A stretch of DNA of 64,000 nucleotides, taken from NCBI GenBank assembly GCA_964399775.1, contig CAYNSH010000001.1:56370-120369 (forward strand), given 5' to 3'. Of the stretch, positions 1 to 64,000 are shown in pieces. The notes beneath the pieces were generated by a model. The model was given only the letters and a program-made list of their open reading frames with translations. It was not told where the DNA came from and did no database searches. The DNA is from an uncultured Verrucomicrobiota bacterium (lineage in GTDB: Bacteria; Verrucomicrobiota; Kiritimatiellia; CAIQIC01; Lenti-01). Position 1 is the stretch's first letter. Every line of letters starts with the position of its first letter. A program made the position numbers and the translations under genes.

Positions 1-443
1 CCCTGCGCATGCCGCCGGAAGAGGTCGTCCGGATCGATATGGAGGATTCCTGCCGCCGGGCGATGTGGCGCGACAAGATCGAGCAGATGGCTGCGCATCC
101 GGACGACGACCGGCTCTATCCCTGTGCCGCGGGCCTCAACCAATTTCATGCGGATCCGTTTGGTGGGCTTACGCCCTGCCTGATGGCGACCGCCTTCCGC
201 GACGGGGGGGTGGACCGCCCGTTCCGCGAACGCTGGGAGCGCGGATTGGGCGCCATCCGCGAAGCGCGCCGCACGGGCACCGGCGGCAGCTTTGGCGGCG
301 AAATGCGCGGCGCCTGCACGCATTGCCCGGCCTTCAACCGACTGGAAACCGGCAGCGAGGAAATCGAATCGGAGTACATGCAGCGCACCACCCGCCTGCG
401 CTATGAAGCCGCCATGAGCGGTTCGGATGGAGAAGAGACATGA
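1..443 (+). CDS. Radical SAM/SPASM-domain maturase, C-terminal fragment; the gene continues upstream of the window (ORF track 9..443).
   Basis: The translation carries the SPASM/twitch Cys pattern CAAGLNQFHADPFGGLTPC and a downstream GACTHCPAF, as in PqqE/MftC-like peptide maturases. Its TGA stop overlaps the ATG of the next ORF in an ATGA. Confidence 0.6.
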   Translation, partial: LRMPPEEVVRIDMEDSCRRAMWRDKIEQMAAHPDDDRLYPCAAGLNQFHADPFGGLTPCLMATAFRDGGVDRPFRERWERGLGAIREARRTGTGGSFGGEMRGACTHCPAFNRLETGSEEIESEYMQRTTRLRYEAAMSGSDGEET

Positions 444-625
444 TGCCAGAAGCCCTTCAACGCATCCCGGTCGAGTCCGGGCTGGTCGCCCGGCGCCCTT
501 ACGAGAAGCCGCGGATCACCCGCGTGGACCTGGCCCTGGCCGAAACCCTATCGGAAGGCTGCAAACTGGAGACCAATCCGGGCTGCGTGGGACCGCCCAT
601 CACGGCCTACGAGGGAGGTTCGTGA
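440..625 (+). CDS. 61-aa protein, a candidate modified-peptide (RiPP-like) precursor with a C-terminal Ser (…AYEGGS), in an operon with the rSAM and the kinase.
   Basis: Its ATG overlaps the rSAM stop (acATGAtg), with GGAG 9 nt upstream. Its TGA overlaps the GTG start of the kinase (GTGA). The segment KPRITRVDLALAETLSE resembles the PqqA-type leader recognition motif, and the C-terminal Ser matches known substrates of HprK-like kinases in lasso-peptide clusters. Confidence 0.45.
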   Translation: MMPEALQRIPVESGLVARRPYEKPRITRVDLALAETLSEGCKLETNPGCVGPPITAYEGGS

Positions 626-1662
626 CCGGCAACGGTCATCTGGATATCGGTCCGCTGCGGTTCGCGCTGCGGACCGATCGGTCTGCCCCGGTGCGATATG
701 CCGACCCGGCGTATACGGGATTCTTTTCGACCTCCGGGGAGTTCAATATTCAATATTCAATATTCAATATTCAACATTCAAGGGTCGAGGGGTTGGCGCG
801 CTGGCCCAGCGCGCCGGGATGCGAAGACTTCGACATTCGACATTCGACATTCGACATTCAGCCTTCGAGGGAAGCGGTGGCCTGCGCTCCGCCTCCTGTC
901 CATCCCCTTCTCGAATTACCCGTGGCGATCACCGAAGGCGTTGGCGAAATACCTGCCACTCCGCCGCTGTGGCGCGCGGGGAACCACTGGGCGGTCTGGG
1001 ATGATGGGGCGGAACTGGCTTTCCACGTTGGCCTCGAAGCGCCGGAGGCGGTGCGGGCGTCGTGTCGCGTCGCGAAGAATGTATCGCGGGCGGAGCTGAC
1101 GGTGCATCCGTCGGCCTGGAAGGACGGCATCTGCCAATCGCCGTTGAAATATCCCCTGGACCAGATCTTGAGCTGGGGTCTGCTATCGAAAATCGGCGGG
1201 GCGCTCTTGCATGCGGCGGTGGCGGTGAAGGACGGGGTGGGGATCGTTTTCGCCGGCCGCAGCGGCGCGGGCAAATCGACGCTGGCGGGATTGTGCCATG
1301 CGGCGGGCTGGCGGATTTTGAACGACGACCGGGCGGTGGTGTTCCGTCGTGGCGGCGAATGGCGCGTGGCGGGTACGCCGTGGCACGGATCGGGGCGCTT
1401 TGCCGAAGCGGCCGAGGTGCCGCTGGGCGGCGTGTACCTGTTGAAACAGGCGCGGGAAAACCGGATCGAGCCGCTGGCCGCGGCGCAGGCCCGGCTGGCG
1501 TTGCTGGACGTGGCGGCGGTGCCGTGGTTCGCCGAGGAGTGGTCGCAGGGCATGTTGGACGGGCTGGACCGGCTGGTGCGCGAGGCCAAAGCCGCGCAAT
1601 TCCATTTCACGAAAACGGCGGCGGCGGTCGACGCGCTGGCGGGGGAGGCGGCGTGGACGTGA
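622..1662 (+). CDS. HPr-kinase-related P-loop kinase (HprK C-terminal-domain family, 'HprK-related kinase' type). The N-terminal region contains an in-frame 41-codon repeat element (742-861). An alternative start lies after the element, near GTG 922.
   Basis: Contains GIVFAGRSGAGKSTLAGL…NDDRAVV…GTPWHGSG, the HprK-like Walker A and capping motifs. The GTG at 622 follows a GGAGG and overlaps the upstream stop. The ORF-track version starting at 427 is probably an over-extension. Confidence 0.55.
   Translation: MTGNGHLDIGPLRFALRTDRSAPVRYADPAYTGFFSTSGEFNIQYSIFNIQHSRVEGLARWPSAPGCEDFDIRHSTFDIQPSREAVACAPPPVHPLLELPVAITEGVGEIPATPPLWRAGNHWAVWDDGAELAFHVGLEAPEAVRASCRVAKNVSRAELTVHPSAWKDGICQSPLKYPLDQILSWGLLSKIGGALLHAAVAVKDGVGIVFAGRSGAGKSTLAGLCHAAGWRILNDDRAVVFRRGGEWRVAGTPWHGSGRFAEAAEVPLGGVYLLKQARENRIEPLAAAQARLALLDVAAVPWFAEEWSQGMLDGLDRLVREAKAAQFHFTKTAAAVDALAGEAAWT
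742..861 (+). repeat. Composite repeat element, copy 1. It has (ATTCAAT)n, a GC-rich palindrome GGCGCGCTGGCCCAGCGCGCC, and (ATTCGAC)4. It lies in-frame within the kinase ORF.
   Basis: The tandem heptamers and the central palindrome are visible directly. A near-identical element lies at 1668-1796. Confidence 0.8.
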
Positions 1663-1667
1663 AGAGG

Positions 1668-1796
1668 GAATTCAATATTCAATATTCAATAATCCATCTT
1701 CAATCTTCAATGGGATTGCAAGGTAGGGCGCGCTGGCTCAGCGCGCCGGGATCCAAGAACTTCAACATTCGATATTCGATATTCGACATTCGGCGT
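1668..1796 (+). repeat. Composite repeat element, copy 2, with the same architecture as 742-861. It lies 6 nt downstream of the kinase stop and is followed by CACGAAT-type inverted arms (1815-1890).
   Basis: Reads (ATTCAAT)n … GGCGCGCTGGCTCAGCGCGCC … (ATTCGAY)n. Confidence 0.8.
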
Positions 1797-1958
1797 TCTG
1801 CCGAGCCGGGATGTGAACCACGAATGACACCAATGGACACGAATAGAAAGCAGGACAAGTTTTCCCCTTTCGTGGATTTTGCGTCTTTCGTAGTGGAACC
1901 GGCTGCCGGACTTTCATCCGTGGGCCGCCGCAGGCATCCGTGGGGGAACCCTCTTGGT

Positions 1959-2387
1959 TCAGCTCGCCGGGCGCTTCAAGACCGCCCGCGCCCAGCGCCG
2001 CAGCGGACGCGTGGTGTAGCGCAACAAGCCGGCCCAGCGCACGCGGCGGGTGTCCAACGGAACTTCGCGTCCGTTGCGGATCACCGATTCGGCCACGCCG
2101 AGGATGTCGTCGGCCGCAACCCAGTCGCCGCCTTCCAGCGCGGCATCGGCGACGGCGAAGATTCGATGGGCTCGCGTTGGGTTGTGAATCAGGCGGTGGG
2201 CGTTGAGCCGGCCATGGATGCGGTACAAGACGATGGAACCCGGTTTCAGCGATGCGGCGGACACCGGCCGGACGCGCAGAATCTGCCCATCGCGGATGGC
2301 GGGATTCATGCTCGGTCCATGGGCGCGAAAGGTCACCGGCGTTTGCTGGCGCAGGAGCGCTTCAATGACTTGCTGGGAGTCGGGCAT
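1959..2387 (-). CDS. S24/S26-family (signal-peptidase/LexA-like) serine peptidase domain protein.
   Basis: Contains GPSMNPAIRDGQIL…PGSIVLY…GRLNAHRLI, a Ser/Lys-dyad peptidase fold motif. The start is placed at MPDSQQ (codon 114 of ORF 1959..2726) to avoid a 300-bp antisense overlap with the hydrolase gene. A longer N-terminus with a TM-like segment is possible. Confidence 0.5.
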   Translation of the reverse strand: MPDSQQVIEALLRQQTPVTFRAHGPSMNPAIRDGQILRVRPVSAASLKPGSIVLYRIHGRLNAHRLIHNPTRAHRIFAVADAALEGGDWVAADDILGVAESVIRNGREVPLDTRRVRWAGLLRYTTRPLRRWARAVLKRPAS

Positions 2388-12305: not shown

Positions 12306-12309
<4 letters not shown>

Positions 12310-13331
12310 GCGCGTCGTCAGGCCTCGTTGCCGTCCTCACCACGATCCAGCCGCCCACGCCGGCCGTGCGCGAACTGCATCGACGGCTGGCGGAATCCGG
12401 CGGCCGCCTCGTCGTGGCTGGCGATCAGAAGGGTCCCGCCGCGTTTGATCTGCCCGATTGCGATTTTCTCAGCCTGGCCGACCAGCAATCCAGCGGGTTC
12501 GCTCTGGCGGAAAAGTTGCCGGTGGGCCACTACGCCCGCAAGAACATCGGCTATCTCCATGCCATCCGCGCCGGCGCGGCGTGCCTCTACGAAACCGACG
12601 ACGACAATGCGCCCCTGCCGGGGTGGGCGCCGCGCACCGAAATTGTGGACCATGCCCGGCGCATTTCCGGTTCGGGTTGGGTGAACGCGTATCGCCACTT
12701 CGCCGAGGATCCGCAAATTTGGCCCCGCGGCTTTCCCTTGGAACAACTGAATTCCATCATTCCATCATTCCATCATTCCATCCTCTCAGCCTCTCCTCTC
12801 CGCGCACCCATCCAGCAGGGGTTGGTCAATGGATCGCCCGACGTGGATGCCGTCTGGCGGCTGACGCAGGACCGCCCGTTTGATTTTGACGAAGCCGCGC
12901 CCCTTTGGCTCGGCCCGGGCCAATGGTGCCCGTTCAATACCCAAAGCACGTGGTGGTGGCCCGCCGCCTATCCGCTACTCTATGTGCCGAGCCACTGCTC
13001 CTTTCGCATGTGCGACATCTGGAAAAGCTTCATCGCCCAGCGCTGCCTGTGGGCCATGGGCTGCGGCGTGGTGTTCCATCCGCCCGAGGTGCTTCAGGAC
13101 CGCAACCCCCACGATTATCTCCGCGATTTCCAGGACGAGGTTCCCGGCTACCTCCAAAATGCACGCATCGCCGAGATTCTCTCCGGCCTGGAACTGGCCG
13201 AAGGCGAGGGGGCCGTGGCGGACAATCTCTTGGCCTGCTACCGAGCCTTGATCCAAGAGACTGTTTTTCCCCCCGAAGAATGGACGCTGGTCAAGGCTTG
13301 GGTGCGGGATGGCTTCACCAGATCACCTTGA
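12306..13331 (+). CDS. DUF288/STELLO-like putative glycosyltransferase-family protein. Carries an in-frame (ATTCCATC)4 repeat insertion (12751-12803).
   Basis: HYARKNIGYLHAIRAGAACLYETDDDN…WWWPAAYPLLYVPS. ATGA overlap with wzt. The internal octamer repeat encodes SIIPSFHHSILSASPL. Confidence 0.45.
12751..12803 (+). repeat. (ATTCCATC)4 plus a CT-rich tract, embedded in-frame in the CDS.
   Basis: Direct tandem octamers seen in sequence, from the same ATTC-core family as the intergenic arrays. Confidence 0.8.
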
Positions 13332-13698
13332 TGGGATAGAGCGGGAAATGATCATCGCTGGAACAAACCATCATGTTTTCGTGGATGGCTTGGGCGACAA
13401 TCAGCCGGTCGAACGGGTCCCGGTGATGAAAGGGGAGGTCGTTCAGCCCGCACAGGTGGGGTGGCTCGATGGGCAGATTCCGGAACCCCTCGGCCAGTCT
13501 TTTCGAGATGAACCGTTCGAGCGGATCGTCCAAGACCAATTTGCCCAGGCTGCACTTGATGGCGATTTCCCACCACGAGGCCATGCTGATGAACACCGTC
13601 GTGTCCGAGTCTTCGATGGCGGCTCGCGCCGTCGGACTCAGCCGTTCGTCTCCCCCTGCAAACCAGAGCAGGGCATGCGTATCCAGCAGCAATTTCAT
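13315..13698 (-). CDS. vapC: PIN-domain toxin VapC (type II TA).
   Basis: MKLLLDTHALLW…D…E…D are the PIN acidic residues. Paired with an upstream Phd/YefM antitoxin through a 4-nt overlap. Confidence 0.8.
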   Translation of the reverse strand: MKLLLDTHALLWFAGGDERLSPTARAAIEDSDTTVFISMASWWEIAIKCSLGKLVLDDPLERFISKRLAEGFRNLPIEPPHLCGLNDLPFHHRDPFDRLIVAQAIHENMMVCSSDDHFPLYPIKVIW

Positions 13699-13922
13699 TG
13701 CTCGTACTCGGCCATGTCACTCAACGGCGCGTCAAAATCGGGGGCCATGTGAATCCGGCCTTTGGCGCTGCCATAAACCGGCCGGTTTTCCCGGACTTCG
13801 CTGGGGCCCAGCGTGGCCACGGGTTTTCCGCGACGGGTCACGGTGAAAATTTCGCCGTGGACAACGCGCTCCAGCAACTCCGAGAAATGCGTCTTGGCTT
13901 CAAAGGCTCCAATGGTTTTCAT
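13695..13922 (-). CDS. Phd/YefM-family antitoxin.
   Basis: MKTIGAFEAKTHFSELLERV…GEIFTVTRRGKPVATL is the typical YefM fold. Overlaps the vapC start. Confidence 0.75.
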   Translation of the reverse strand: MKTIGAFEAKTHFSELLERVVHGEIFTVTRRGKPVATLGPSEVRENRPVYGSAKGRIHMAPDFDAPLSDMAEYEQ

Positions 13923-27476: not shown

Positions 27477-28466
27477 ATGGTAGAAAACAAGCCAATTCCC
27501 ATGCAAACCTTCCAACAGCCTGAACGGGGAGATTCTTGCGTCGGCGTGGTCATTCCCACCTATCGGCGCGGCGCGGTGCTGCTGGAGACGCTGACGCATC
27601 TTCTTGAACTGGTTCCGCCGCCGGACGAAATCGTGGTGGTCGACCAAACCGAGGTCCATCCCCCCGATGTGGAAGAGACCTTGCAGGAGTGGGAGCGGGG
27701 GGGGCAGTTGCGGCGGTTGCGGATTTCGCCGCCCTCGATCCCGTGCGCGATGAATGCCGGCCTGCTGCAGGCCCGCGGTGGGATTGTCCTGTTTTTGGAC
27801 GACGATCTTGTGCCGGAGCCGGGGCTGATCGCGCACCACCGGCAAGCGCATGCGGAGCATCCCGACGCCTGGGCGGTCGTGGGCCAGGTGCTGCAGCCCG
27901 GAGAGGAGCCTTCCGCGTCGCCCCCGAGCCGCAAGGGGGGCAGCGCGCTCCGGCGCGATCTGGATTTTGCGTTCAATGGCATCGAACCGGCATGGGTGGA
28001 GAACGTCATGGCCGGCAATCTATCGGTCAAGCGCAGCCAGGCTTTGGCCGTTGGCGGATTCGATGAAAACTTCATCCCGCCGGTGTCGTTCCGATTTGAA
28101 ACCGAGTTTGCCCGGCGGCTGGTGGCCGCCGGCGGAAAAATCTGGTTCGAGCCGCAGGCGGCCATCCGCCATCTGCGTGCGGGCAGCGGCGGGACCCGCG
28201 CACGGGGAGGCCACATGGCCAGCGCTTCGCCCCTGCACGGCGTCGGCGACACCTACTATGCCCTGCGGCGCGGTCGCGGCTGGGACAGACTTTGGCATAT
28301 TCTCAAGCGGCCATTCCGCGAGGTCTGCACGAAATACCACCTGCGGCGTCCATGGTGGATTCCGGTCAAGTTCATCGGCGAACTCCGGGCGCTGGTGCTG
28401 GCGATCCGTCTGCATCGGGCAGGACCAAAGCTCCTAACCACGAAGGATGCGAGCGCGCACGAGTAG
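27477..28466 (+). CDS. Family 2 glycosyltransferase.
   Basis: CVGVVIPTYRRGAVLLETL…VVVDQTE…DDD. Start choice is uncertain: ATG 27447, 27477 and 27501 are all possible. Confidence 0.6.
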   Translation: MVENKPIPMQTFQQPERGDSCVGVVIPTYRRGAVLLETLTHLLELVPPPDEIVVVDQTEVHPPDVEETLQEWERGGQLRRLRISPPSIPCAMNAGLLQARGGIVLFLDDDLVPEPGLIAHHRQAHAEHPDAWAVVGQVLQPGEEPSASPPSRKGGSALRRDLDFAFNGIEPAWVENVMAGNLSVKRSQALAVGGFDENFIPPVSFRFETEFARRLVAAGGKIWFEPQAAIRHLRAGSGGTRARGGHMASASPLHGVGDTYYALRRGRGWDRLWHILKRPFREVCTKYHLRRPWWIPVKFIGELRALVLAIRLHRAGPKLLTTKDASAHE

Positions 28467-28633
28467 AAAACCATGACGATCCGGGGACCTGGCAACCACG
28501 AATGGCACGAATGAACACGAATAGAGAACGGATCCGGGGTTTTACCATTCGTGTAGATTCGAGTGATTCGTGGTTGGCTGTCTTGATAGAAATCCAGTAA
28601 CCACGAATAGCACGAATGAACACGAATAGGAGG
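28466..28633. repeat. Left copy of a ~170-bp repeat flanking the GxxExxY gene. It consists of CACGAAT(A/G)-type heptamer arms in inverted orientation around GAGAACGGATCCGGGGTTTTA.
   Basis: About 95% identical to 29046-29215. The internal inverted repeat AACCACGAAT…/…ATTCGTGGTT is seen directly. Confidence 0.8.
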
Positions 28634-28641
28634 GCATCAAA

Positions 28642-29019
28642 ATGACCGAACTCATCTACAAGGAGGAAGCCTATCAAATTGTCGGAGCCGCAATGGACGT
28701 ATACAACACGATGGGAAACGGGTTTGTTGAGCCGGTTTATCAAGAATGCGTGGAAATCGAACTTGGCCTGCGTGGAATTTCTTTTGAACAGCAGGTTCCC
28801 ATCCCGCTCGACTACAAGAGTCGTCGGCTGAAACAACAATATATTCCGGATTTGACCTGCTTTGGCAGTATCATTGTCGAGCTCAAGGCGGTCAAATCCA
28901 TCGTGGATGAGCATCGCGCCCAGCTTCTTAATTATTTGAAGGCGACCGGGCTGCACCTCGGCATGCTGGTGAACTTTGGGGCCTATCCCAAGCTGGAATG
29001 GGAGCGCATGGTACTTTGA
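28642..29019 (+). CDS. GxxExxY-family protein (small PD-(D/E)xK-like).
   Basis: MTELIYKEEAYQIVGAAMDVYNTMGNGFVEPVYQE…LLNYLKATGLHLGMLVNF matches the family. AGGAGGG lies upstream. Confidence 0.75.
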   Translation: MTELIYKEEAYQIVGAAMDVYNTMGNGFVEPVYQECVEIELGLRGISFEQQVPIPLDYKSRRLKQQYIPDLTCFGSIIVELKAVKSIVDEHRAQLLNYLKATGLHLGMLVNFGAYPKLEWERMVL

Positions 29020-29045
29020 GGCATACCCACGAATGGTTAGAGATA

Positions 29046-29255
29046 GAAAACCATGACGATCCGGAGACTTGGCAACCACGAATAGCACGAATGAACAAGA
29101 ATAGAGAACGGATCCGGGGTTTTACCATTCGTGTAGATTCGAGTGATTCGTGGTTGGCTGTCTTGATAGAAATCCAGTAACCACGAATAGCACGAATGAA
29201 CACGAATAGAGAACGGGTCGGAAGCTTAACATTCGTGTATATTCGAGTTATTCGT
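29046..29255. repeat. Right copy of the flanking repeat, with one extra degenerate unit.
   Basis: A direct repeat of 28466-28633. The GTG that opens ORF 29254 lies inside it. Confidence 0.8.
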
Positions 29256-29274
29256 GGTTAAATCAATCCCAGTG

Positions 29275-39842: not shown

Positions 39843-39941
39843 TACCACGGCTCACCCGGAGGGTTCGCCCTACCCAAGACGTCGAGAGGGTTTGGGGTAG
39901 GGCGAGGCATCCCTGCCGAGCCGGTCTCCAAGATTCCGCCC

Positions 39942-46540: not shown

Positions 46541-47251
46541 ATGGAAACGGCTGAAAGCCTGCGGGGGAAGGTGGCGCTGGTGACGGCCGGCGCCCGGCGC
46601 ATCGGGGCGTCCATCTGCCGCGAGCTGGCGGCGCGCGGCGCCAGCGTGGTTGTGCATTACCACCACTCCGAGGGCGAGGCGCTCGCGTTGAACCGCTCGC
46701 TGGGTCGCGGCGTGTTTTCGGTGCGCGGCGACCTGTCCACCGCCCAGGGCTGCGAATGGGTCTTCCACGAAGCCGTCGAATGGATGGGGCGGGTGGATAT
46801 TCTGGTCAACAACGCCTCGCTTTTCGCCCGCGACGGCGAAATGGAGCCGCCGGCCCTGCGCGCCATCAACGTCGAGGCTCCCCTGCACCTCGCGGGGAGG
46901 GTGGCCGCGCAACCGTCCGGCGGATGCGTCATCCATCTGCTCGACAGCCGCATCGCCCGCGCGGAACCAGGCGGTTTCTCCGCCTACGCCGCGACCAAGC
47001 GCGAACTGGCCGAGTCGGTGCCGCGCTGCGCCCGCGAATGGGCCCCGCGCGTCCGCGTCAACGGCGTCGCCCCCGGCCCCGTCCTGGCGCCGGAAGGCGT
47101 CCGCGAACCCGCCGGCGACCTCCCCCTCGGGCGGCGACCCGATCCCGAAGACGTCGCCCGCGCCGTCGCGTTTCTTGCCGAAGCCGGCGCCGTTACCGGT
47201 CAAATCCTGTTTGTCGACGGCGGGCAGCATCTGGGGAATAAGCTGGAATGA
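46541..47251 (+). CDS. SDR-family oxidoreductase.
   Basis: GKVALVTAGARRIGASI (TGxxxGxG-like) and NNAS…YAATK are the catalytic YxxxK elements. Confidence 0.75.
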   Translation: METAESLRGKVALVTAGARRIGASICRELAARGASVVVHYHHSEGEALALNRSLGRGVFSVRGDLSTAQGCEWVFHEAVEWMGRVDILVNNASLFARDGEMEPPALRAINVEAPLHLAGRVAAQPSGGCVIHLLDSRIARAEPGGFSAYAATKRELAESVPRCAREWAPRVRVNGVAPGPVLAPEGVREPAGDLPLGRRPDPEDVARAVAFLAEAGAVTGQILFVDGGQHLGNKLE

Positions 47252-47295
47252 TGGAATGTGGGAATGCTGGAATGTGGGAATGATGGAATAATGGA
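47252..47295. repeat. (TGGAATGN)n tandem array, the GGAAT orientation of the ATTCC family.
   Basis: gatggaatgtgggaatgctggaatgtgggaatgatggaataatgg. Confidence 0.75.
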
Positions 47296-47952: not shown

Positions 47953-47987
47953 GCGCAATCCCGGCGATGAAGGCAGTCGATGAACAT

Positions 47988-48112
47988 TTTCCACGGCGTG
48001 GAAAACAGTTTTCCACAGCGTGGAAAAATCCGCGAACAGTTTTCCATGGCGTGGAAAAAAACGGCGAAAGTTTTCCACGGCGTGGAAAACAGTTTTCCAT
48101 AGCGTGGAAAAC
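47988..48112. repeat. Array of five 19-20-bp palindromes TTTTCCAYRGCGTGGAAAAM (cluster A).
   Basis: Five copies with 2-11 nt spacers. Each resembles two inverted DnaA-box-like 9-mers (TTTTCCACA/G). Confidence 0.85.
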
Positions 48113-50772: not shown

Positions 50773-51109
50773 TCAAGGGAACAGCCGGAGGACGTTTTAG
50801 ACAGGATGAACAGGATTTTTCAGGATTCACAGGATTGAACAGCCGATTGGCCACAAAGCTTTCCAAGCCGCAGGCATGGAGCACAAAGAGGTTTTGGCTC
50901 CAGGCCTCCAATCGTGTCGCTCTCTGTGTTCTATGTGCTCTATGTGGCTGATTCATTTTTCCTTTGTTTCCTGTGTTCCTGCTTGGGCTTTCTGCCCGAC
51001 CTGATTCACCCCTGCCACGAGGGCATGGGGGTCTTTTTGGGCGTTGTGGATTGACGGGGGGTTGGATAGAGTGGGCGGCCCGATTGGGTTGAACGGAAAG
51101 AGGCCGCGC

Positions 51110-53674
51110 ATGAAGATCCATGACTTTTTAAAGACGAATCGCCTGCTGGTGGACGGGGCGATGGGCACGCAGATCCAGAACCGCCATCCGGGGGCGGCGG
51201 CTTGGGGCGAGTACGAGGGCTGCAACGAGTGGCTGAATTTGACGGCGCCGGAGATCATCCGCGACATCCACCTGGGCTATTTCCGAGCCGGCAGCGACGC
51301 GGTGGAGACCAACAGCTTCGGTTCGTCGCCGATGACGCTGGGGGAGTATGACCTGAGCGCGCGGGCGAAGGAGATTTCGCGGGCGGCGGCGGAGATCGCG
51401 CGCGGCGCGGCCGACGCGGCGCAGGCGGAGGACGGGCGTCCGCGGTTTGTGCTGGGTTCGGTGGGGCCGGGAACCAAGCTGGCCACGCTGGGGCAGGCGA
51501 GCTATGACGACCTCTACGGGGGCTATCAGGAGCAGATGGGCGGGCTGCTGGAGGGCGGGGCGGATGGGCTCATTATCGAAACCTGCCAGGACCTCTTGCA
51601 GATCAAGGCGGCGGTGGGGGCGGCCATGGCTTTGCTGGGCGGGAGCCGCGACAAGCTGCTGTATGTGTCGGTGACGGTGGAAACGACGGGGACGCTGCTG
51701 GTGGGGTCGTCCATCTGGGCGGTGCTGGCGGCGCTGGAGCCGTACCCGATTGATGTGCTGGGGATGAATTGCGCGACGGGGCCGGAGGCCATGCAGCGGC
51801 ATCTGGAGGCGATCGCCCGCCAGTGGCGGGGGAGGATCGGCTGCATGCCGAACGCGGGTCTGCCCACGCTGAAGGACGGCCAGGTGCATTATCCGCTTGG
51901 CCCGGTCGAATTCGCCCAGGTGTTTGCGCCGATGGTGAAAGCGATCGGCCTGAACGTGGCGGGGGGCTGCTGCGGGACGACGCCGGAGCATATCCACGCC
52001 CTGCGCGAAGCGCTGGGCGACCCCGGCGCCCCCGCGGCTCGGGAGGCCATCGCGCCCGAGCAGGTGTGCAGTCTGTTTTCGCCGATGGACCTGGCGCAGG
52101 AGCCCCCGCCGCTCTACGTGGGCGAACGGGCGAATGCCACGGGCTCCAAAAAATTCCGCGAGGCGCTCTTGGCGGAGCGGCTGGACACGGCCTTCGACCT
52201 GCTGACGGAGCAGGACGAGGGGGTGGCGCATGTGCTGGACCTGAGCGTGGCCTACGCCGGGCGCGACGAGCTGGCGGATATGACGACGCTGGTGGCGCGC
52301 GCCGCCCGTGAGTGCCGCCTGCCGCTCATGGTGGACAGCACGCAGCTGGACGTGGTCGAGGCGGCGCTGAAGCTGTACGGCGGCCGGATGCTGATCAATT
52401 CGATCAATTTCGAGTCGGGCGAGGAAAAGGCCGAAAAGCTGGTGGCGCTGGCGCGACAGTTCGGGGCCGGCCTGGTGGCGCTGACCATCGACGAGGTGGG
52501 CATGGCCATGACGGCCGACCGCAAGGTGGAGATCGCCCGGCGCCTGGTGGACTTCTGCGTGCACCGCGGGATGCGCCCCGGCGACCTGCTGATTGATACG
52601 CTGACGTTCACGGTCGGCAGCGGCGACCCCTCGCTCAAGTCCGCCGCGGTCGAGACGATCGCGGCCATCCGGCGCATCAAGGCCGAAATTCCCGGCGTGC
52701 GGACGCTGCTGGGACTTTCCAATATCTCCTTCGGCTTGAAGCCAGCGGCGCGCAAGGTGCTCAATACGCTGTTCCTGGACCGCTGCATCAAGGCGGGCCT
52801 GGATGCGTGCATTATCAATACGGCGACGCTGGTGCCGCTGACCGACCTGCCCGCCGAGTCGGTCGAGCTGGCCGCGAAGCTGCTCGACAACGACGCGTCC
52901 AACGGCGATCCGCTGGAAAACTACATTCAACACTTCGAGGCGGCGGTGCCCGAGGAAGAGGCGGGCGCGGCCGGGGCGATCCTGTCGCCGGAGGAACAGG
53001 TGCAGGCGGCCCTGGTCAAGGGCAAGGCCGCCCTGCTGGAAACCTCCATCCCCGCGCTGCTGGAGAGGATGGCGGCGGAGGACGTGCTGAACAACCACCT
53101 GATCCCGGGCATGAAGGAGGTCGGGCGGCTGTTCAACGACGGCATTCTGCAGCTTCCGTTCGTGCTGAAGTCGGCCGAGGTGATGAAAAAGGCCGTTGCG
53201 ATGATCAAGCCCTTCCTGAAGGCCGGGGAGGCGAAGGCGGCCGGCACGCTGGTGATCGGCACCGTGGCGGGCGACGTGCACGACATCGGCAAGAACCTGG
53301 TGGACATCATTCTGTCCAACAACGGCTACCGGGTGGTGAACCTCGGGGTCAAGGTGCCCATCGAGAAAATGCTCGCGGCGGTCAAGGAGTCCAACGCCGA
53401 CATGCTGGGGATGAGCGGCCTGCTGGTGAAGTCGGTGCAGGTGATGCGCGAAAACCTCAAGGCGATGGAAACGGCGGGGCTGAAGATCCCGGTGCTGCTG
53501 GGCGGCGCCGCGCTGACGGACGATTTTGTCCTGAAGGACTGCCAGCCGGCCTATTCGGGACCGGTGCGCTACTGCAAGGACGCCTTTGACAGCATTACGT
53601 GCTTCCGCGAGCTGGAGGAGACGGGCCGCCTCGCGCCGTCGCCGCCCTACCAGGCCAAACCGGCGCAAACTTGA
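51110..53674 (+). CDS. metH: Cobalamin-dependent methionine synthase MetH lacking the C-terminal activation domain (Hcy-binding, pterin-binding and B12-binding modules).
   Basis: DGAMGT, GGCCGTTPEHI, pterin-binding and B12-binding motifs including GTVAGDVHDIGKNLV. 854 aa, where full-length MetH is about 1200 aa. Confidence 0.85.
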   Translation: MKIHDFLKTNRLLVDGAMGTQIQNRHPGAAAWGEYEGCNEWLNLTAPEIIRDIHLGYFRAGSDAVETNSFGSSPMTLGEYDLSARAKEISRAAAEIARGAADAAQAEDGRPRFVLGSVGPGTKLATLGQASYDDLYGGYQEQMGGLLEGGADGLIIETCQDLLQIKAAVGAAMALLGGSRDKLLYVSVTVETTGTLLVGSSIWAVLAALEPYPIDVLGMNCATGPEAMQRHLEAIARQWRGRIGCMPNAGLPTLKDGQVHYPLGPVEFAQVFAPMVKAIGLNVAGGCCGTTPEHIHALREALGDPGAPAAREAIAPEQVCSLFSPMDLAQEPPPLYVGERANATGSKKFREALLAERLDTAFDLLTEQDEGVAHVLDLSVAYAGRDELADMTTLVARAARECRLPLMVDSTQLDVVEAALKLYGGRMLINSINFESGEEKAEKLVALARQFGAGLVALTIDEVGMAMTADRKVEIARRLVDFCVHRGMRPGDLLIDTLTFTVGSGDPSLKSAAVETIAAIRRIKAEIPGVRTLLGLSNISFGLKPAARKVLNTLFLDRCIKAGLDACIINTATLVPLTDLPAESVELAAKLLDNDASNGDPLENYIQHFEAAVPEEEAGAAGAILSPEEQVQAALVKGKAALLETSIPALLERMAAEDVLNNHLIPGMKEVGRLFNDGILQLPFVLKSAEVMKKAVAMIKPFLKAGEAKAAGTLVIGTVAGDVHDIGKNLVDIILSNNGYRVVNLGVKVPIEKMLAAVKESNADMLGMSGLLVKSVQVMRENLKAMETAGLKIPVLLGGAALTDDFVLKDCQPAYSGPVRYCKDAFDSITCFRELEETGRLAPSPPYQAKPAQT

Positions 53675-53709
53675 AACTGGAAACTGGAAACTTGGAAAAA
53701 AGGGGGTAG

Positions 53710-53840
53710 GGTTCCACGCTATGGAAAACAGTTTTCCACAGTATGGAAAAAAGTGGCGCCGGTTTTCCACGGCATGGAAAATCCGTACGCTTTTTTTCCA
53801 CGGCATGGATCCGGCATCTGCCGGACCACAGCATGGAAAA
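53710..53840. repeat. Array of about five TTTTCCACRGYATGGAAAA palindromes (cluster B), partly degenerate.
   Basis: Same family as 47988-48112. Lies between metH and the activation-domain gene. Confidence 0.8.
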
Positions 53841-53928
53841 CCCGGGACGAGGGCGTCCCGGCTCCAGAACGCGGGACGAGGGCGTCCCGGCTCCAACTGA
53901 CCTCTGAACCCCGACCCCCCAAACCGCC

Positions 53929-62537: not shown

Positions 62538-62648
62538 TTCCATCCCAACATTTTACCATTCCACCATTCCACCATTCCACCATTCCAATATCCCAATATT
62601 CCATCATTCCATTCCTCCAGTATTCCCTCTCCCCATCCCCCCCCCCCC
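62538..62648. repeat. (ATTCCAC)4 / ATTCCAT heptamer array ending in a C12 homopolymer that abuts the exonuclease ATG.
   Basis: ccattccaccattccaccattccaccattccaatatcccaatattccatcattccatt…cccatcccccccccccATG. Confidence 0.8.
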
Positions 62649-63614: not shown

Positions 63615-63947
63615 ATGAAGCGAATACACGGGATGCTCTTGACTCTGGCAATCCTTGGCGCCGTCGGCGTGGCCTTCGCGGCGGTCACCTGCGAAACCGT
63701 CAAAATGAACGACCAAACCTGTGGCGCGCAGATGTGGCAGTGCAACCAGTGCGGCGCGGTCGGCTGCGACGATCTTTCGCGGGAATGCCCCGCCCTGCTC
63801 CAGGATCTCCATGCCGCGGAACGCCAGTGCGTCTATTGCGGCAGCAACGACTGGGCACCCCTCGAAGCGCCCGTCCCCGAAGCCCCGGACCCCGCCGAGT
63901 TGAACGGTTTCCATGGCGTGGAAAATTCCCCCCAAAGTTTTCCATAG
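63615..63947 (+). CDS. Small secreted Cys-rich protein. The C-terminal codons and the stop lie inside palindrome array C.
   Basis: Signal peptide MKRIHGMLLTLAILGAVGVAFA. About 10 Cys. AAGGAA upstream. Confidence 0.4.
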   Translation: MKRIHGMLLTLAILGAVGVAFAAVTCETVKMNDQTCGAQMWQCNQCGAVGCDDLSRECPALLQDLHAAERQCVYCGSNDWAPLEAPVPEAPDPAELNGFHGVENSPQSFP

Positions 63948-64000
63948 CGTGGAAAAATGACGAAAAAGTTTTCCATGGCGTGGAAAACTGCCCTTGGATA
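63907..64000. repeat. Array of three or more TTTTCCATRGCGTGGAAAA palindromes (cluster C), truncated by the window end.
   Basis: Same family as clusters A and B. Confidence 0.8.

Follow-up and report, generated by a model that had tools for sequence, protein, structure and literature searches.

We analyzed a 64-kb window from an uncultured Verrucomicrobiota bacterium (contig CAYNSH010000001.1, positions 56,370 to 120,369), in which two copies of a composite repeat element are located in and directly behind the gene of a ScmC-like, HprK-related kinase. The kinase gene (622–1662, plus strand, 346 aa) was assigned by a PF27840 (ScmC) match on the called gene and by partial matches to TIGR04249 and TIGR04352. 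It is the last gene of a cassette consisting of pqqD, a radical S-adenosylmethionine (SAM) gene, a 61-aa open reading frame (ORF) and scmC, which heads a polysaccharide locus. Composite copy 1 (737–871, plus strand) is positioned within scmC. Composite copy 2 (1666–1803, plus strand) begins 8 nt past the scmC stop codon, in a gap of 296 nt between scmC and the convergent gene of an S24/S26-like peptidase (1959–2309, minus strand, 116 aa as called). An earlier note on this DNA had described the elements as bracketing the kinase gene; copy 1, however, lies inside the coding sequence and not 5’ of the gene. The G+C content of the window is 65.5%, and both composites appear in it as AT-richer islands with 50% and 46% GC, respectively.

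Each composite is about 135 nt long and carries a perfect 21-nt GC palindrome between two heptamer arrays. The core sequence GGCGCGCTGGCYCAGCGCGCC is found without mismatch at 795–815 in copy 1 (GGCGCGCTGGCCCAGCGCGCC) and at 1727–1747 in copy 2 (GGCGCGCTGGCTCAGCGCGCC), with a chance expectation of 0.12 and none of 100 shuffles attaining the observed count. The composites are spaced 932 nt apart and share 83% identity across 87 nt. Tandem Repeats Finder called heptamer tracts of 3.7–6 copies with 85–100% matches, all on the plus strand. In copy 1 these are (TTCAATA)5.7 at 742–781 (17% GC) as left arm and (TTCGACA)4.4 at 829–859 as right arm, in copy 2 (ATTCAAT)6.0 at 1670–1711, built from conserved irregular units (AATAATCCATCTTCAATCTTCAAT), and (ATTCGAT/C)3.7 at 1767–1792. 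The left arm of copy 2 is connected to the core by a junction at 1712–1726 (GGGATTGCAAG), in which an inverted copy of the last heptamer is followed by the tetranucleotide GTAG at 1723–1726. The common architecture that had been suggested for both copies is established by the identical core, the called arms and the overall identity. The proposed perfect 9-bp stem was also confirmed; it closes a 3-nt loop and reaches -17.1 kcal/mol as RNA. The heptamer arms had likewise been viewed as parts of the hairpins, a description that did not stand: left and right arms are same-strand direct repeats of related heptamers and not inverted ones, and in folds of either strand the core hairpin alone was constant. 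A long hairpin formed from both arms was ruled out by the weak and inconsistent arm-arm pairing in these folds.

Repetitive extragenic palindromic (REP) elements of the GTAG type are characterized by a GTAG tag, stems of 6–13 bp, loops of 2–3 nt, complementary sub-families and dimers (Di Nocera, De Gregorio & Rocco 2013, PMC3733652). A collection in which each species is represented by one genome was scanned for the core plus GGG, with matches in 14 stretches. Eleven of them, with 13 core copies, originate from four Kiritimatiellia/Verrucomicrobiota metagenome-assembled genomes (MAGs), and in 12 of these 13 copies from the Planctomycetes-Verrucomicrobia-Chlamydiae (PVC) group the core is preceded by GGTAG, in the remaining one by GCAG. 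The three matches outside this group carry no tag and one of them seems to be in coding sequence; they were read as chance. The four MAGs, all fragmentary, contain 5, 3, 3–4 and 1 core loci, and the core was also detected 3’ of the scmC stop codon in a fifth assembly reached via a protein homologue. The palindrome thus recurs beyond a local duplication, at 13 sites and 11 loci in four related MAGs, and the earlier suggestion of possibly mobile repeats was partly right, in that the copies are members of dispersed families.

Within the window the tag is intact in copy 2 (GGTAG at 1722–1726) and has decayed to GGGTT in copy 1. The extended pattern GTAGGG[CA][GC] occurs at 39 sites in the window and the 13 PVC loci (144 kb in total), and by reading a palindrome comes after about 36 of these. 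The 21-nt unit was found in eleven distinct variants, which can be aligned gap-free and have the 9-bp stem paired in 99 out of 99 cells. Changes on both sides were observed for seven of the nine stem pairs, while one-sided changes of the G-U type did not occur (0). None of 500 shuffles attained the observed values in four out of five covariation measures; for the fifth, further pair types, 8 of 500 did. As the stems are strictly symmetric on both strands and free of G-U steps, a constraint at the DNA level is favored over one acting on RNA only. Units arranged as dimers with the tags inside were found at several related loci, which we designate by L numbers (L003, L005, L009 and L011), and an alternating cluster is present in L010/L012. 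Copies 1 and 2 are singletons. With its 21 nt the core falls within the 20–40 bp typical of REP units. Judged by its sequence, it is a GTAG-tagged REP from a superfamily that keeps its palindrome through paired changes of the arms. The earlier note had excluded both classical REPs or bacterial interspersed mosaic elements (BIMEs) and CRISPR repeats. The latter part holds, with two cores 932 nt apart in and beside the kinase gene and no cas genes in the part of the neighborhood with Pfam gene calls. The former fails for the core, because its GTAG tag, perfect stem-loop, compensatory sub-families and inverted dimers in relatives match the published definition of GTAG REPs (PMC3733652).

A second family of GTAG-tagged REPs is represented in the window by an inverted dimer with the tags inside at 39846–39924, following the pattern GGTAGGGCGA-N4-TCC(C)-N4’-GAGCCG. 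Copies of this family differ by compensatory changes in the inner 4-bp stem (GGCA/TGCC, ACCC/GGGT, ATCG/CGAT, GGCG/CGCC). The sequence GGCGTTCTGCCGAGCCGGG at 1792–1810 (plus strand), which follows the right arm of copy 2, is probably a 5’-truncated remnant of this second family, as suggested by reading it against the family and in particular against GGCATCCCTGCCGAGCCGG at 39900; it also belongs to a direct-repeat family.

Since the GTG start codon of scmC at 622 overlaps the stop codon of the upstream 61-aa ORF (GTGA) and an identical 346-aa product was called in at least seven independent metagenome assemblies, copy 1 is located inside the gene and in frame. It encodes about GEFNIQYSIFNIQHSRVEGLARWPSAPGCEDFDIRHSTFDIQPSRE, a peptide of the type FNIQYSIFNIQHSR. 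The linker between the conserved motifs PAYxGFF and LxELPV comprises 60 aa here compared to 8–11 aa in most of 60 homologues, and the expansion amounts to about 147 extra nt. AlphaFold2 modelled ScmC with a predicted template modelling score (pTM) of 0.83 and with 267 residues at a predicted local distance difference test score (pLDDT) of at least 90. Values below 50 were obtained at residues 44–85, which represent the element-encoded stretch, and residues 1–40, N-terminal to the insert, are modelled as strands of the fold. Copy 1 is accordingly predicted to be read through as a disordered loop of about 49 residues. A start codon 3’ of copy 1, which would render the element extragenic, was ruled out by the conservation of residues 1–35 in all homologues, by their modelled strands with pLDDT of 85–94 and by the GTG/stop overlap. 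All three forward reading frames of copy 1 are open and all three reverse frames contain stops, therefore only the present orientation could survive within the gene. A word-index search with the element-encoded peptide gave no candidates. Comparison with 1.84 billion representatives yielded 12 weak matches, and no second full composite was found. The matches inspected look like spurious ORFs across tandem repeats, for example SIFNIQYSIFNIQYS and TFDIRHPTFDIRRS; in one ORF the same core is translated three times in tandem (GRARWPSAPG).

Heptamer arrays of differing content also occupy this linker position in the two closest ScmC orthologues, which have 74% and 69% aa identity. The linker of L019 consists of a TTCAAYA arm followed by other sequence, that of L021 contains only the TTCGACA arm without left arm and core. 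In L007 and in the homologues P0009, P0049 and P0005, in the last one twice, a REP of the second family resides in the same linker and encodes GRIVPVSRD or GRTVPVSRD. As orthologues carry differing arrays or a REP of the second family at this place, the ScmC linker is a recurrent permissive site, and one linker has been colonized independently by two REP families.

We also noticed that the 61-aa ORF between the radical-SAM/SPASM gene and scmC (window 440–625; L007 6677–6862) is conserved. It has the consensus ...RRPYEKPxxxRVDLALAETLSxGCKLExxxxCVGPPITAxEGGS and gave no Pfam or NCBIfam match. Possibly it represents the precursor peptide of an SCM-like cassette for a ribosomally synthesized and post-translationally modified peptide (RiPP) at the head of the exopolysaccharide (EPS) locus.

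Copy 2 is placed where REPs are usually found, straight after a stop codon and between convergent genes. An array directly behind the scmC stop codon is present at the same position and in the same orientation in five species (the window, L019/L020, L021, L037 and L007), and more distant orthologues (L036, L038) have nothing at this position. What comes next varies: in L019/L020 it is the same core, in L037 another GTAG REP dimer, and in L007 there is no REP. This variation, together with the differing number and sequence of array units between the orthologues of different species, demonstrates modular turnover between species. Within the source population the picture is uniform. The covered parts of the region show 100% identity and no differences in copy number among at least six assemblies recovered from different samples; these assemblies probably stem from one strain. 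Assembly contigs tend to end within the elements, at window positions 1749 and 1942. No terminator-like site was found in 400–2600 (0 sites), where the core is followed by GGGAT and not by a U/T run, and a scan of the region gave no promoter-like consensus. Rfam produced no match at the gathering score in the 64 kb, the sole match in 600–2000 being at chance level (E = 0.94).

We compared copy 2 with its counterparts in other genomes. Left arm, junction and core are identical in 78 of 82 nt (95%) to L006 of MAG RZYG01 and to 92% to L007b of JBFXHR01, with both counterparts located 5’ of pqqD and therefore at a non-orthologous position. For scmC coding DNA the identity with L007 is only 75%, and L020, the closest relative, reaches no more than 77% in its orthologous post-stop element. 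Because 95% identity at a non-orthologous site exceeds the 75% of the scmC coding DNA, the composite is to be regarded as a dispersed unit, and its left arm is more than a microsatellite, since it recurs together with junction and core at 95% and 92% identity elsewhere. In L006a and L007b the same type of arm and junction leads into a different hairpin, GGACGGCGCGCCGCGCCGTCC. On the basis of these alignments the arm, the junction and the GTAG palindrome form a dispersed modular element of about 85 nt. A metagenome scan with the junction pattern CAATGGGRTTGSAAGGTAGGG gave one match, which lies in apparent coding sequence of an unrelated AT-rich marine contig and was judged as chance. Arrays with a period of 7–8 nt are a general property of the window, with 8 observed compared to a mean of 0.23 in composition-preserving shuffles; their units include ATTCCATC, TGGAATGA, CCATTCCA and AAACTGG. 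Similar arrays were seen in L006, L007, L010, L012, L019, L021 and L037. Since arrays also occur alone and REPs also with other partners, the whole is best described as a BIME-like mosaic.

In E. coli, BIMEs combine REPs with other short conserved motifs: alternating Y/Z REP pairs are joined with S/L/A/B motifs and with sites for integration host factor (IHF) or gyrase. The composites resemble them as intergenic mosaics in which several types of modules are chained with a REP, but there are no alternating Y/Z pairs at the locus, tandem heptads are found instead of S/L/A/B motifs, and no IHF or gyrase site is known here. Heptamers repeated in tandem are likewise known from the short tandemly repeated repetitive (STRR) sequences of cyanobacteria, a further class of heptanucleotide repeats. 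Other precedents are the intergenic direct repeats of the TAACTGA type in Beggiatoaceae, cyanobacteria and Bacteroidetes (MacGregor 2015, PMC4679880) and the long simple sequence repeats (LSSRs) of Mrazek 2007, as cited in PMC4679880. With the repeats described there our arrays share the 7-nt unit, copy numbers of 2–6 or more, the location at gene boundaries and the presence of several heptamer types in one intergenic region. They differ in the units themselves, in their conserved irregular units with an inverted terminal unit and in being joined to a GTAG REP, and also in position: the arrays found here follow stop codons, whereas those of PMC4679880 are placed just before start codons. Common to both is the occasional presence in ORFs, in the stop-free orientation only and at the periphery of the fold (PMC4679880).

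The GTAG REPs themselves have been described from the PVC superphylum, mainly downstream of ORFs and between genes in convergent or unidirectional arrangement, and the largest number of in-frame intragenic copies is reported from the verrucomicrobium Opitutus terrae, with clusters encoding 43–82 aa (PMC3733652). The elements studied here agree with them in the unpaired 5’ GTAG, the 9-bp stem and 3-nt loop, the complementary sub-families and the occurrence as singletons, inverted dimers and clusters, and also in having one copy near the 3’ end of an ORF between convergent genes and another in frame within a gene. Three properties set them apart: the coupling to conserved arms of heptamer arrays, the loss of the tag in the intragenic copy, and the complete absence of G-T pairs in 99 stem cells (0), whereas G-T pairing is common in the described families. 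In addition, a REP-associated tyrosine transposase (RAYT; for the REP/RAYT system see Nunvar 2010, PMC2817692) flanked by these REPs was not found in about 270 kb. The association of REPs with other repeats was not examined in detail by the GTAG-REP survey itself (PMC3733652). Rickettsia palindromic elements (RPE), selfish DNA in frame within protein genes (cited in PMC3733652), are comparable to copy 1 as a palindromic repeat that is read as an extra peptide at a permissive surface site and leaves the rest of the fold intact, but they belong to an unrelated sequence family and host lineage, and the insert in ScmC is a mosaic of REP and simple repeat. The composite is such a mosaic, neither a miniature transposable element with inverted repeats (MITE) nor a new class of system. 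The coupling of heptad arms to a GTAG REP and the recurrent colonization of the linker in ScmC are new to a modest degree, in a lineage that has been little studied.

Taken as a whole, we consider it likely that the composites are REP/BIME-like mosaics of a GTAG REP and heptanucleotide repeats, which have spread in the manner of REPs and are largely selfish or neutral; neutrality or selfishness in itself appears probable. Two kinds of repeat DNA that are both common in a Kiritimatiellia-type genome would have been joined in each composite. A RAYT-like enzyme of the Y1/HUH type may recognize the single-stranded GTAG hairpin, and/or recombination between copies may account for the spread, while the arrays could have grown by replication slippage, possibly favored beside a stable hairpin. 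With the array ending in an inverted copy of its own unit before GTAG, array, junction and REP would travel jointly as the unit of about 85 nt, and copy 1 would have landed in, or been copied into, the variable surface linker of the ScmC-like kinase. Effects on fitness may be weak or absent, at most a side effect of the GC hairpin on mRNA stability at the 3’ end. The findings extend GTAG-tagged REPs to Kiritimatiellia-type genomes known only from metagenomes. The locus documents a conserved coupling of REP and heptanucleotide array and provides a clean example of repeat DNA read through as a predicted disordered protein loop at a recurrent hot spot. On the practical side, metagenome assemblies break at these modules, ORF predictions are inflated by them, and annotated proteins acquire low-complexity segments.

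Several observations weigh against selfish, REP-like spread. The 64-kb window contains only two cores, both at one gene, and all copies of the core with an arm so far come from the pqqD–radical SAM–scmC cassette, in five organisms. Together with the positional conservation of the array directly after the scmC stop codon in five species, this confinement could reflect a function specific to the cassette. No movement or change in copy number was seen among the at least six assemblies from different samples that are identical in the region. A cognate enzyme was not found either: E. coli RayT gave no match by tblastn in about 270 kb of partial genome sequence. The only Y1_Tnp gene seen, reached through a weak match in L004 (127–1140; PF01797, E = 9e-13), lies between 25-nt terminal inverted repeats (TIRs) and not between GTAG REPs. 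It is part of L004 1–1160 (MAG CAYMTY01, contig 57), encodes an IS200-like HUH protein of 337 aa and has the TIR sequence GGGGTCAGTCCTATGAAATGATGTT. A segment of about 55 nt upstream of it is duplicated 72 nt apart, and a copy of the REP core lies about 3 kb away. This arrangement corresponds to the ‘TIRYT’ of PMC3733652 and not to a REPtron. In L005, two opposed REPs enclose a gene that reads as GTP cyclohydrolase I.

A functional role has to be weighed for the elements as signals that act in cis, as RNA or DNA, in the scm RiPP/EPS operon, with the post-stop GC hairpin ending or stabilizing the scmC transcript. This would be compatible with an origin as REP, and we hold it to be possible but doubtful. 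Equally tentative is the related idea that the unstructured A/U-rich heptads offer a platform to an RNA-binding protein, for example a cold-shock protein (CSP) or S1. In favor is the post-stop array of the five species, with a GTAG hairpin coming next in the window, in L019/L020 and in L037; REPs generally lie at 3’ ends, with a presumed role as RNA elements (PMC3733652), and heptamer repeats have been proposed as binding sites of CSP, S1 or CsrA (PMC4679880). On the other side, unit sequence and hairpin family vary between species at this site, and L036 and L038 have nothing. There is no U-tract terminator in 400–2600 and no Rfam family in the 64 kb, the strictly Watson-Crick variation on both strands without G-U intermediates points to a palindrome maintained in DNA, and one of the two copies is situated within a coding region.

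The heptamer arrays could also act as landing pads, beside which a REP enzyme inserts the GTAG hairpin next to a heptad target, for example TCAAT or CCAAT, thereby attracting several REP families. In all seven array-linked cases (7/7) array and REP share the strand, with the array at the GTAG side; the same arm can precede REPs of different families, and in L007 an ‘empty’ array with a junction-like end is left after the scmC stop codon. Some REP families are indeed known to occupy specific target repeats (PMC3733652, section 7). Nevertheless we regard insertion at arrays as unlikely, with most core copies in relatives lacking an array and the search for the enzyme in about 270 kb yielding no candidate; arm plus core are nearly identical between genomes, which would be explained just as well by their propagation as one unit. 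More improbable still, in our estimation, is that the unit of about 85 nt constitutes a distinct, actively propagating Kiritimatiellia element, in which the heptads provide a platform for the REP machinery or for a protein and in which the capture of the ScmC linker and of both ends of the cassette is functionally linked.

Phase variation of scmC is very unlikely. Since 7 is not a multiple of 3, one slippage step of 7 nt would shift the reading frame and turn the kinase off or on, the intragenic tracts are near-perfect (96–100% matches), and scmC is positioned at the head of a surface-polysaccharide locus. The tracts are short, however, with 4–6 units, copy numbers are identical in at least six independent assemblies, and orthologues stay in frame despite different numbers of units. 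The forward frames are open through the element but not past it, so that a shift would simply kill the protein. That the two copies are a MITE, as the earlier note had considered, or a purely local duplication without wider family is scarcely credible: the window does hold two copies only, 932 nt apart and both at one gene, but the core was found 13 times in four further genomes, a non-orthologous site carries the composite with 95% identity, and neither terminal inverted repeats nor a target-site duplication are present, the arms being direct repeats.

Further repeat families were encountered in the window. The CACGAAT/ATTCGTG structure that had been indicated at about 1815–1890 is real. According to alignment and folds it spans 1808–1897 on the plus strand and is a diverged member of a family of hairpins of about 90 nt with the composition (CACGAAT)3...(ATTCGTG)3, three better copies of which are located at 28488, 29068 and 29173. 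Its own fold is weak, with a z-score of -1.0 compared to -7.8 for an intact copy of the family. At 28461–29266 a GxxExxY / PDDEXK_3 gene (28642–29019) is enclosed by 170-nt direct repeats (28461–28629 and 29040–29209, 97% identical), each made up of a (CACGAAT)n/(ATTCGTG)n hairpin element and half an array. It looks as if the gene had been inserted into, or duplicated with, this repeat family. A multi-copy GxxExxY gene was ruled out, all recovered contigs representing the same locus.

Tandem clusters of a 19-bp palindrome, TTTTCCAC-N3-GTGGAAAA, were found at window positions 47987–48111, 53710–53781 and 63907–63987 as well as in L015 (1–60), L019 (4350–4420), L037 (1355–1400) and L010 (3130–3261). 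The window contains 11 sites with 0.03 expected. They are intergenic and 5’ of genes; as the motif is also placed 5’ of pqqD in three species, it is a candidate for an operator or a promoter-associated motif. A 29-nt hairpin unit, AACCCGGGACGAGGGCGTCCCGGCTCCAG, is present twice in tandem at 53839–53895, and the related hairpin CCGGCACGAGGGCGTGCCGGCTCC occurs in another MAG (L007 5236–5262); both probably belong to one more dispersed family of palindromes.

Arrays of short units were also mapped at sites apart from scmC. Six and a half copies of TGGAATGA at 47244–47295 are placed between the end of a gene and an ORF6N-domain gene, (AAACTGG)4.4 extends over 53667–53698, and nine copies of CCATTCCA at 62540–62626 are located just 5’ of an apparent 5’-3’ exonuclease gene. 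Opposed arrays of ACAGGAT-type and TTTCCTGTG-type units were seen at 50801–50981. Four copies of ATTCCATC at 12751–12782 lie inside a STELLO-family glycosyltransferase gene (about 12306–13331) and are translated as (NSIIPSFHHSIL), a second example of protein read from a simple repeat. This array occupies a variable linker between the conserved motifs WPRGFPLE and RAPxQQGLVNGSPD, and unusual insertions of other kinds are seen in the homologues P0124, P0183 and P0189, in this linker or in further variable linkers of the family. Inside the same glycosyltransferase cluster, a PIN (VapC-like) / PhdYeFM antitoxin pair is encoded on the minus strand at 13315–13922.

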